DNA of 35,262 nt from assembly GCA_964636085.1 (NCBI GenBank), contig CAZWPQ010000017.1:1-35262 (forward strand). The letters run 5' to 3'. The notes under the pieces were generated by a model. That model was not told where the DNA came from, searched no databases, and saw only the letters and a list, made by a program, of their open reading frames with translations. Position 1 is the stretch's first letter. Each line of letters opens with the position of its first letter. The stretch comes from an uncultured Nitrososphaerota archaeon (lineage in GTDB: Archaea; Asgardarchaeota; Njordarchaeia; Njordarchaeales; Panguiarchaeaceae). Below, piece by piece: positions 776-8,635 of this stretch. A program made the position numbers and the translations under genes.

Positions 776-940
776 GGTGGGCATCCCTAGCCAGCTCGAG
801 GCCCGCGTGAGCCAAATTAGTATTCGAGCTCGAGGGCTCACGTGTATTTGAACCGGCATTGCGGACCTCAGACTAGCTTAGTATTCGGGCTCAAAGGCCC
901 AAAAATCAATCAGTCTTTGAGCGGCTAGGGATGCCCTACC
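776..940 (-). ncRNA. Candidate bridge-RNA-like structured RNA in the IS110 non-coding end (strand inferred from the transposase)
   Basis: A perfect 14-bp stem (779-792 with 923-936) encloses two 24-nt modules, 817-840 and 878-901, that are 20/24 identical. Each has TTAGTATTCG plus a 4-bp hairpin with a compensatory A-T/G-C swap. It lies directly 5' of an IS110 gene. Confidence 0.7.
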
Positions 941-983
941 TGATAATATTACTAGAATTCGTGTGATTTAGACCTCACACAGG

Positions 984-1026
984 AAAATCAACAACCCGTG
1001 TATAAATCGCCCCTCAAGGGGCGACT
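984..1026. repeat. Repeat copy 1: 22-bp AAAATCAACAACCCGTGTATAA followed by a GC hairpin
   Basis: 984-1005 is identical to 1097-1118. Hairpin TCGCCCC-TCAA-GGGGCGA at 1007-1024. 984-993 is also inverted at 1040-1049. Confidence 0.9.
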
Positions 1027-1096
1027 AGGGGACTTAGTATGTTGATTTTTGATTGCTCACACTTGAAACGCCTCCCGAGAAGGCTCCACAAAACTT

Positions 1097-1138
1097 AAAA
1101 TCAACAACCCGTGTATAAGTCATCCCTCAGGGATGACT
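1097..1138. repeat. Repeat copy 2: 22-bp AAAATCAACAACCCGTGTATAA followed by a hairpin
   Basis: Hairpin AGTCATCCC-TCA-GGGATGACT at 1118-1138, with two compensatory base-pair changes relative to copy 1. It ends 2 nt before the TIR at 1141. Confidence 0.9.
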
Positions 1139-1140
1139 GG

Positions 1141-2911
1141 GTCGCAAAATTAGTTCTGTAGGGCGTTTTTGTGGCTTCTAAGTGGAAATACGAGGCGGTA
1201 GAATCAATATGTATCAAAAAGCCTCATATTTTTCACCAATGATCTTTGATAACACACCTTTATATGACACCACAGGCGAATACCCAGCAAAGACATCAAA
1301 ACCACGAACAGCACGCCTAAAATGACAAAAAACACGCCAGACCTCAACATGGTCACAACAACGCCAAAGCGAAGAAAGATCGAGACTGTCTGAACAGTTA
1401 ACAATAAAAGCGAGAGACCAACCATAACTAGCGAGTTGAAGACCAACCTGACGCCGGCCGCAGACACGACGAATAAACCACTTAAGACTCATGTTGAATC
1501 TCTCAATAATTATATTGTCCTTTGGAATTAATGGATCGTCGTAACAAGAGAAGAGTCCATCCCACCAATTTCTGAGTGTTTTGACAGCATGCCTAGCGAA
1601 ACGCAGTGCAAAATCACTATCATGGCCTCTATAGTACCTTGGATTGCATGACCGGAGGAACTTCCGACCGAAAACCTCAGCAAGGAAGTCTAAGATAGCT
1701 CTCTTTACCTCCTCTGACGGCCCCTTGCTGTCCCGCAGGATTCGCCAAATCCTAAATACCACTCGCCACGCCCATACTACCTCTTCGAAGAGAGGCTTAA
1801 GCTTGTCTAGGAGCTTCCTAATTTTTGAAAGAAGTCTAGCCATATCTACTCGTGCCCGTTTGGGCCATGGATATACAAGACTATGGAGGAGCTGATATAT
1901 TATGCCAGCTGGTTTGAATGGATATCGGGGCCTTATGCGGATGATTCGGCGAAGGCGGCGGAATACGATGTTGTTGACTTTTTTTATATAGTTTCCTATA
2001 CTCAGCCATGCTGGATATACTGTTCTTCAGTGCGCTCGCCAAGATCTTGTCTTGCTTTTGGACGGGATCCGCAAGGTTTCTTATGAAGTGGAGCTGGCAG
2101 AGCTGGTGCTTGACTTCTGGAAAGACTTTCCTTATAGCATTGACAAGATAGGTCTCTTTATCAGATACTACCCCCTTATTTTTATTCCAGCCTCCTCAAG
2201 CTTTGTGCGGACTCTTCGTAGCAGATCTACTAGGCTGTCCTTACTGTAACTTGGTAGGAGTTCGGCGTGGAGTGGTTTTCCCGTTGATGCTTCAAGAACT
2301 ATCCATAGGGTGGCTGGGCCATTCTCTGGATTCACGCCATCGATGCATATCGCTATCTCCTTGTCTTGGAATTCCTTGAGAGTTTCTTTTTCGATGACGT
2401 TGGATGCTAGTGTTAGGTAGTATTTCATGATGTCTATTGCCCTATTTCTTGTCATTGGTAGTCCTCGCTTCCTAAGGGCAGTCACGATGTACTCCCATGT
2501 CTTCTTTTCCTGTAGTCTTTTCTGGGTTATCCATGCCATGACGTCGTACCCGTATTTTCTTCTTGGTGGTGCTAGTTGTTTTTCTGGTCTTACTGTTTTG
2601 TGGTAGTTTGGGCAGTGTAGGTTGTTGCATGCGTATCTGTATTCTTTGATGGTTATGGGGCCTTGTAGTGTCCATATTGTCCTTTTGTTTAGGTAGCGGT
2701 ATATCATGTAGCCGTTGCATTCTGGGCATGTTTTATCTTGTCTTGTTAGGCTTATTGTGGTGTTTGTTTCGATTTTTGTCACCCGTTTTTCGTAATATAT
2801 GTGTAATACTTTATTTAAAAATCTATGAGGCTATATGATGCATATTGTCTCATCGGCCTACCTTAGCCATTTAAAGCCCATAAAAATGGCCTACAAATCT
2901 AGTGACGCGAC
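1141..2911 (-). mobile_element. IS element (ISNCY-like / IS256-MULE-related DDE), about 1.77 kb, with imperfect 45-bp terminal inverted repeats
   Basis: 1141-1185 (GTCGCAAAATTAGTTCTGTAGGGCG...) matches the reverse complement of 2867-2911 (GTCGCGTCACTAGATTTGTAGGCCA...) at 32/45 positions, and these repeats bracket the transposase fragments. No convincing target-site duplication. Confidence 0.75.
1214..2782 (-). pseudogene. DDE transposase (ISNCY-like) split by two homopolymer frameshifts
   Basis: N-terminal CPEC...YACNNLHC zinc ribbon and AICIDG. After a shift at C5 (2171-2175) the frame reads GVVSDKE...HQLCQLHFIRNL. After a second shift at T7 (1979-1985) it reads VNNIVFRR...RYPFKPAG and joins ORF 1214-1843, which carries PKDNIIIERF. 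Confidence 0.8.
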
Positions 2912-7766: not shown

Positions 7767-8390
7767 TCATACGCCTAATTTGCGTCGTGTTTCCCACGCC
7801 AAAAGCTCTATCTCCTTCTTGTATTTTTCTGGAAAAACCCTAGCAAGAATAGCAAGCCTAGAGGCCTCCTGGAACACCCTTTTAACGCCAAGCCCCTCAA
7901 TAGCAACAGTTTTAAACACGGGGAAGGGGCCATTCAATCTTAAAACCCTTAGTAGTACTGTCTCTGGCAACGCATCGGGCAGATCCCTCTTGTTTAATGC
8001 AACAACTATAGGGGTCGAGTACCACTCCTTACCCAAGAATGCCTTCAGCTCCTGAATACTATAGACATTTTCCTCAAGGGCCTCTGGATCCGAATCAACA
8101 ACGAAAACTACAGAATCAGCCCCCCTCAAAACAGTGCGTCTCTGCATTTTATGCCTTCTCTGGCCTGGCACTGTATATAAGTCAAAGAAAATATTGCCAG
8201 ATGTCATAAGTGGTACATAATCAAAATAGATAGTCCTACCGCTTTCATCATCAATCATACGAAGTTTGCCTTTTCTAAGAGTCCTGATTTTATTATACAG
8301 AACCTTAAGCATCGTTGTCTTGCCCCCCAATGAGGGGCCATAGAGAACAACCTTAAACCTATAGTGCCCATGCTTATCCTTGAAAACCAT
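7767..8390 (-). CDS. MglA-like small Ras-superfamily GTPase
   Basis: G1 GPSLGGKTT, G2 with intrinsic Arg (GRTIYFD), MglA-type G3 YTVPGQ, G4 NKRD, G5 TVA. Start placed at ATG 8390 (MVFKDK) with GGTGA upstream. Confidence 0.9.
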   Translation of the reverse strand: MVFKDKHGHYRFKVVLYGPSLGGKTTMLKVLYNKIRTLRKGKLRMIDDESGRTIYFDYVPLMTSGNIFFDLYTVPGQRRHKMQRRTVLRGADSVVFVVDSDPEALEENVYSIQELKAFLGKEWYSTPIVVALNKRDLPDALPETVLLRVLRLNGPFPVFKTVAIEGLGVKRVFQEASRLAILARVFPEKYKKEIELLAWETRRKLGV

Positions 8391-8635
8391 AAAATTCACC
8401 ACCAATATTCTAAATATAAAAAATGTATAAAAAACCATATATATTTTGGAAATATAGATAAAAAAGCGTCTACGACCTTTATAATTATTGTCTATTTTGT
8501 ATACGACCCAAGATCTTTTATACTTATCTGTACTTGCAATCAATTAAAGCAGAGGTTTCGAATCTGCGTTAAAAAATAGATATTGTAGCGATAGGCTATA
8601 TTGTGCGGTTATTTTCCCGATCTATTATATCTCCC

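Follow-up and report, generated by a model that had tools for sequence, protein, structure and literature searches.

An IS110 family element from an Asgard archaeon in which both donor guides are complementary to one DNA strand, and its likely fold-back single-strand donor

The attC sites of integrons and the attP site of CTX phage are recombination sites made from a folded single strand, which takes part in one strand exchange and is resolved by replication. Both are recombined by tyrosine recombinases, and the folded site is read by the protein. Among the closest described systems to the locus presented here are IS621 and ISCro4 (PMC11208160, PMC11208158, PMC13626964; PDB 8wt6, 9t56), which have in common with it a DEDD plus serine Tnp domain enzyme and a 5' two-loop RNA, with the target loop first, 9-nt and 7-nt guides over a 2-nt core and a handshake dinucleotide. 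For IS621 and CazIS110-1 it has been found that the top strand is excised as a single-stranded circle and that insertion is also by the top strand (10.1101/2025.10.25.684509; 10.64898/2026.08.31.748434). With CazIS110-1, single-stranded DNA donors were about 20-fold poorer at the LD-RT joint, and with IS621, top-strand mismatches at positions 2-7 promote synapsis (PMC11208158). Tandem non-coding units beside IS110 genes have already been reported as well (10.64898/2026.08.14.744561). Whether IS110 elements move through single- or double-stranded circles is debated, and two donor guides that read one and the same strand would be an answer to this question at the level of sequence.

The window, that is the whole stretch of 35,262 nucleotides that was analysed, opens within an IS110 DEDD recombinase gene on the minus strand (3-746; PF01548, E 2.4e-12), which is cut by the contig start so that the first 247 of 373 amino acids are present. 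The protein is 97% identical to a full-length relative, P0002, which matches NF033542 at 213 bits (cut-off 140) and which, together with its loci, supplies the missing end. The enzyme combines a DEDD RuvC domain with a Transposase_20 domain carrying the catalytic serine, the latter read in P0002 as it lies off the contig in the window, and the DEDD and serine Tnp domains match PDB 8wt6 at E 1e-14. Judged by these domains and by a two-loop RNA in the non-coding end, the element is a member of the IS110 family. A related transposase carries the label Candidatus Njordarchaeia, and public runs with matching sequence are mostly hydrothermal or sediment metagenomes, with no RNA dataset among those listed. 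Elsewhere in the window, 7767-8543 encodes a small GTPase with Arf/Rag-type Pfam hits, typical of Asgard archaea.

A preliminary description of this DNA had pointed to short matches between the loops of a putative RNA and a nearby repeat, and these matches hold. Positions 984-1005 and 1097-1118 are two identical 22-mers, the loop segments 841-847 and 902-909 lie where they had been placed, and 1033-1051 does equal 877-884 followed by G and the reverse complement of 900-909. The shuffling that had been proposed was carried out with 20,000 dinucleotide shuffles of 961-1096 on both strands. Chance rates were 0.006 for CGTGTAT, 0.009 for AAAATCAA, 0.001 for segment 877-884 and 0.0003 for segment 900-909, and each pair of segments was reached jointly in 0 of 20,000 shuffles; these rates are optimistic, the segments having been picked after the fact, and covariation in homologues is the stronger test. 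Two features had been missed: loop A, too, has a second matching side, 817-823, whose counterpart is 1034-1040, and both repeats run on into hairpins (1007-1024 and 1119-1137).

A bridge RNA is predicted at 758-957, with a closing stem of 758-792 and 923-957, from its fold z-score and from its conservation in 10 relatives; an Rfam search returned no relevant family. The single sequence gave a fold z of -9.2 on the minus and -7.2 on the plus strand, whereas the consensus fold of the alignment was lower in energy in antisense (-97.9) than in sense (-89.8), and folding energy alone thus leaves the strand unsettled. The U-G closing pairs (46 of 48) are biased by the search pattern and were not used as proof. 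We infer that the RNA is transcribed from the minus strand, in the sense of the transposase. Read in this way, loop B precedes loop A, as in the plan of IS621. In each loop an apical stem separates a 9-nt 5' guide from a 7-nt 3' guide, whose last bases are those of the core and which is followed by the handshake dinucleotide. The 3' guide of loop B follows the flank and that of loop A the right end, which identifies B as the target loop and A as the donor loop.

All four guides were assigned on the minus strand. The right target guide, ATACTAA at 878-884 with the handshake dinucleotide at 876-877 (together 876-884), rests on flank matches: in homologues the 3' guide of loop B tracks the upstream flank, which here is ATACTAA, and flanks of this kind include sites other than element ends, for which two runs show loose ends at 1040. 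In a sister element of the same genome (63% identical), which was seen with 6 right flanks, 8 different and independent left flanks all end in ACAA and match its right target guide, and in L021 a variant right target guide is paired with a variant flank. The right donor guide, at 817-823, is identical to the right target guide (ATACTAA), and its match spans the core and the final 5 nt of the right end; in every lineage this guide follows the right end, with ATACTAA, ATACCAA, ATAGCAA and ACATCAA each found with its own end. Pooled scores of the right target and right donor guides are circular, the ends having been placed with them, and the pooled 4.8/5 of the right donor guide is inflated by selection; we relied on multi-copy flanks instead. 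The left target guide, on the 5' side of loop B (902-910), was assigned from the equivalent position in homologues and matches the right (downstream) flanks weakly (3.3/8 versus 2.7). Its match to the inverted repeat, 8/9 in this element and on average 4.9/9 over 21 types, completes the earlier 1033-1051 pattern and is not shared with the homologues. The first suggestion, that the loops hold the guides of a bridge RNA, is supported by the test proposed for it, the guides tracking flanks and element ends across homologues. Among variants of this element, L021, L025 and L227 carry the changed right target guide GTACCAA, which resembles the sister element's right end. At L192 the right target and right donor guides are identical, yet the left flank fits the guide of a relative, L004; this suggests that the guides were rewritten after insertion.

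The divergence of flanks between copies allowed us to place both ends and the core, a definition which the preliminary description had called for. In transposase sense, again on the minus strand, the full element starts with 9 nt (1025-1033, where 1033 is base 1, in register p8), followed by a DNA hairpin (1007-1024), an internal left-donor site that we call LD' (997-1005) and the left subterminal inverted repeat (984-993), which in L019-L026 is found again, inverted, before the right end; the right end is made of the inverted repeat, ATACT and AA. The L021 flank diverges just before the left start and the right flanks diverge directly after AA in 4 contexts, which places the core dinucleotide AA at 1034-1035, and loose ends before 1034 occur in public contigs. 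A 5-bp core, CATAC, was ruled out by flank divergence. The hairpin is present in every copy, including all copies of the sister element and every unit of an array at L224.

The full element adjoins the right end of a 107-bp non-coding mini-element (1034-1140, minus strand), in which both ends are present and which consists of a hairpin (1119-1137), LD' (1110-1118), an inverted repeat (1097-1106), a spacer and the right end. This right end (1036-1069, with RD at 1036-1040 and an inverted repeat at 1040-1049) matches the right ends of the P0002 loci and of contigs C7, C63 and C86, and it doubles as the left flank, or target half, of the full element. The mini-element is also found at other loci in run X1. 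An unrelated broken IS with terminal inverted repeats (1141-2911, minus strand) is inserted into its left tip, and an X1 allele without this IS continues into another right end. The inserted IS has terminal inverted repeats of about 30 bp, and neither of its two ORF pieces reaches the cut-off of any family; its ends recur on C6, C8, C27, C36, C73 and C79, with no clear target duplication. Beyond it, 2912-2930 holds 9 nt that match the boundary of the upstream unit in the uninterrupted X1 allele, perhaps as the original target, perhaps as a duplication that has degenerated.

Three of the guides behave as in IS621 and the left donor guide does not. This guide, on the 5' side of loop A (841-849), matches the canonical position, the first bases of the element, at 4.5/9, whereas it matches the internal site in the same sense at 7.8/9 for cognate and 5.4 for non-cognate pairs over 21 guide types (7/9 in the window). 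Non-cognate pairs were given the same freedom as cognate pairs, and the cognate match was reached in 0 of 200,000 permutations, a value overstated by the non-independence of related elements. The test is not circular because the guide is defined by its position in the RNA, and changes in guide and LD' track each other across proteins only 30-45% identical. The match being in the same sense, both donor guides pair with one strand, which is the plus strand of the window and which we infer to be the 'top' strand of the bridge convention. On the comparison of copies and homologues, then, the element ends, the core AA, the guide assignments and the complementarity of both donor guides to a single strand are established at the level of sequence. 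The earlier suspicion that donor sites are encoded here, with a non-canonical geometry of recognition, is borne out by the matches of LD' and of the right end to the donor guides and by the internal, same-sense position of the left site. The 22-bp repeat itself is not a site read by both loops, as had been thought; it is made of the subterminal inverted repeat and the internal left-donor site. Analyses confined to short windows around the core could miss such a left donor match.

The LD' layout was found in Asgard and Methanosarcinia elements, and by hand reading in Bacillota, Chloroflexota and Caballeronia. Two Asgard groups with left extensions of 4-9 nt have neither the hairpin nor the internal site. 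The Asgard IS110 elements at L008, L223, L006 and L201-L206 combine subterminal repeats with a 5' RNA and a left extension that is short, and their left donor guide has an antisense match of only 4-5 nt. A third, distant IS110-like element, with an upstream RNA that is differently arranged, was seen in G000 (C77:3279-4499, L016) and G004 (C117:458-1684), and G402 (L233-L240) contains about 20 copies of a Methanosarcinaceae member, several of them in the same repeated context.

When the guide-bound strand was folded in silico across the circle junction, the two inverted repeats paired and the hairpin formed, and in the displayed junction folds the stretch between these stems has one guide site on either side, with the first 9 nt of the full element opposite LD'. 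Of 41 distinct ends, 25 have the first base of LD' opposite end position 7-9, compared with 4.5 in shuffles, and in 24 of these it is position 7 or 8, where A-runs leave an ambiguity of one base; the other 16 ends miss the register by the automatic rule. In this test the core was placed from the target guide alone, and the register was taken from a symmetry-axis score, the MFE-based register being noisy. The register is held although LD' ends 29-37 nt from the core, and the left target guide, too, is aligned with its flank at position 8 (e.g. L268). Half-sites folded back on one strand, as in attC, are thus found here by computation. The hairpins are often weak (median z -1.7), the guide-bound strand is the more stable in 26 versus 11 of 41 ends, a modest asymmetry, and on the RD side the partner strand falls short by 0-2 nt.

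We consider it likely that the donor is a fold-back single strand resembling attC and the CTX-phage site and inserted by one strand exchange. The top strand would be folded at the circle junction, its right arm formed by the paired subterminal inverted repeats and its left arm by the left-end hairpin, and a mismatched bubble would lie between the two opposed guide sites. Once this folded pseudo-duplex was bound by the donor loop, one strand exchange 3' of the core would carry the strand into the target in full, together with its hairpin, and replication would then complete the insertion. The hairpin would be lost in a second exchange, which would be disfavoured because the partner strand is without a matching core; insertion of the whole strand fits the retention of the hairpin in all copies. 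The fold-back end would supply in cis the strand for the left donor guide, and it would already be open at the positions at which engineered mismatches stabilised the synapse of IS621. The deficit of single-stranded donors with CazIS110-1 would then be expected, because those donors do not provide the strand with which the left donor guide pairs.

Perhaps the same base pairing takes place on double-stranded DNA, with the hairpin extruded or the DNA looped in a double-stranded circle and no free single-stranded intermediate. The covariation and register data would fit this equally well, the strand asymmetry of folding is weak, and replichore orientation shows no significant bias (23 co-oriented versus 14, p about 0.19; 5 complete genomes, origin assumed at cdc6, hand count). 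However, about 60 bp would have to be melted and held open by short, often imperfect stems, and single-stranded circles have been reported for two IS110 members; we regard this route as unlikely. It is likewise improbable, in our judgement, that RD and RT half-matches suffice, with LD' serving as an accessory anchor or in self-regulation and the hairpin being a 5' stem-loop of the RNA or a protein site. Half-match recombination has been reported for IS621 (10.64898/2026.08.31.748434), whose RNA has a 5' stem-loop, and left target matches are weak here, but this explanation accounts neither for the p7-p8 register being held while hairpin length varies nor for the inverted repeats completing the other arm.

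LD' is a canonical left half-site in opposite orientation and the interior is flanked by inverted repeats, as would be expected if LD' and RD recombined as inverted half-sites and turned the interior round into a canonical double-stranded donor, or if the true left end lay at the shared ATAC. These proposals are very doubtful: 0 inverted junctions were found for 29 end types in all loci examined, and the sequence common to the copies extends outwards beyond ATAC by 28 nt. Hardly credible, in spite of an 18/19 match at 1033-1051 and the lower consensus energy in antisense, is the plus-strand RNA of the preliminary description with loop B reading 1033-1051 as a two-strand site, since that stretch is a right end and the two loop-B matches in it show no core overlap, loop B in homologues follows the flanks and not the inverted repeats, loop order and guide polarity would reverse the IS621 structure, the guides covary in the transposase-sense reading and the single-sequence fold favours the minus strand.

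The identity of the right target and right donor guides makes right ends into targets, with insertion behind them, and this would explain the tandem of mini-element and full element seen here. Target and donor guides are also the same in a second Asgard lineage, in which L224 carries arrays of 55-60 bp minis. Such mini arrays, next to IS110 genes in which target and donor guide are the same, were observed at L224:2370-2623 and upstream, at L207 and at L011; their units contain the hairpin, LD', both inverted repeats and the right end, and could pass for CRISPR-like arrays. Junctions of right and left ends in assemblies may be tandems rather than circles. We lean towards the existence of a large archaeal and bacterial IS110 branch with an RNA-read, attC-like donor, in which single-stranded circles, down to minis of 55 bp, would be complete substrates and self-directed target guides would build cassette-like arrays. 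If the fold-back single-strand donor is correct, these enzymes would natively take single-stranded DNA donors, which would be useful for editing, and the attC/CTX strategy would have been reached by convergence in an RNA-guided recombinase. Candidate members occur in cultured organisms, including Methanosarcinia genomes, Alicyclobacillus and Roseburia.

We found no description of an IS110 element with a folded donor in the literature searched, a search with ISfinder and subscription journals outside its scope. Compared with IS621 and ISCro4, the core here is AA/AG and not CT, RD is at the right end, there are subterminal repeats of 9-13 bp, and the left donor guide is without an opposite-strand complement beside the core, its match being on the same strand behind the hairpin. 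The IS1111 group (PMC11187229) has subterminal inverted repeats in common with our element (984-993 and the right end), a 3-nt right extension is present in most homologues here, and in short-end relatives the left extension is about 7 nt. In contrast to that group, where the left extension is 7 nt and the RNA is downstream, the RNA here is upstream of the gene and the left extension is 29-40 nt with a hairpin (40 nt in this element). By these comparisons the element is an IS110 family member that departs from both the canonical donor and the IS1111 end rule. The tandem units described beside IS110 genes (10.64898/2026.08.14.744561) likewise accumulate next to the transposase gene, whereas the units here are complete minis with left and right ends, and target and donor guide are identical.

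The predicted mechanism can be set beside the copy-out of CazIS110-1 and IS621 (10.1101/2025.10.25.684509; 10.64898/2026.08.31.748434), with its top-strand excision, single-stranded circle, top-strand insertion and tolerance of half-matches. The circle of those elements lacks the strand for the left donor guide, whereas the circle here would carry both sites. ISPpu10 is another IS110 member that needs a DNA stem-loop (10.64898/2026.03.19.712850). Its hairpin, however, is in the target, where it gates recognition and supplies no guide site. In comparison with attC and CTX phage, the folded site of the element presented here would be read by an RNA, and used by a DEDD/serine enzyme.
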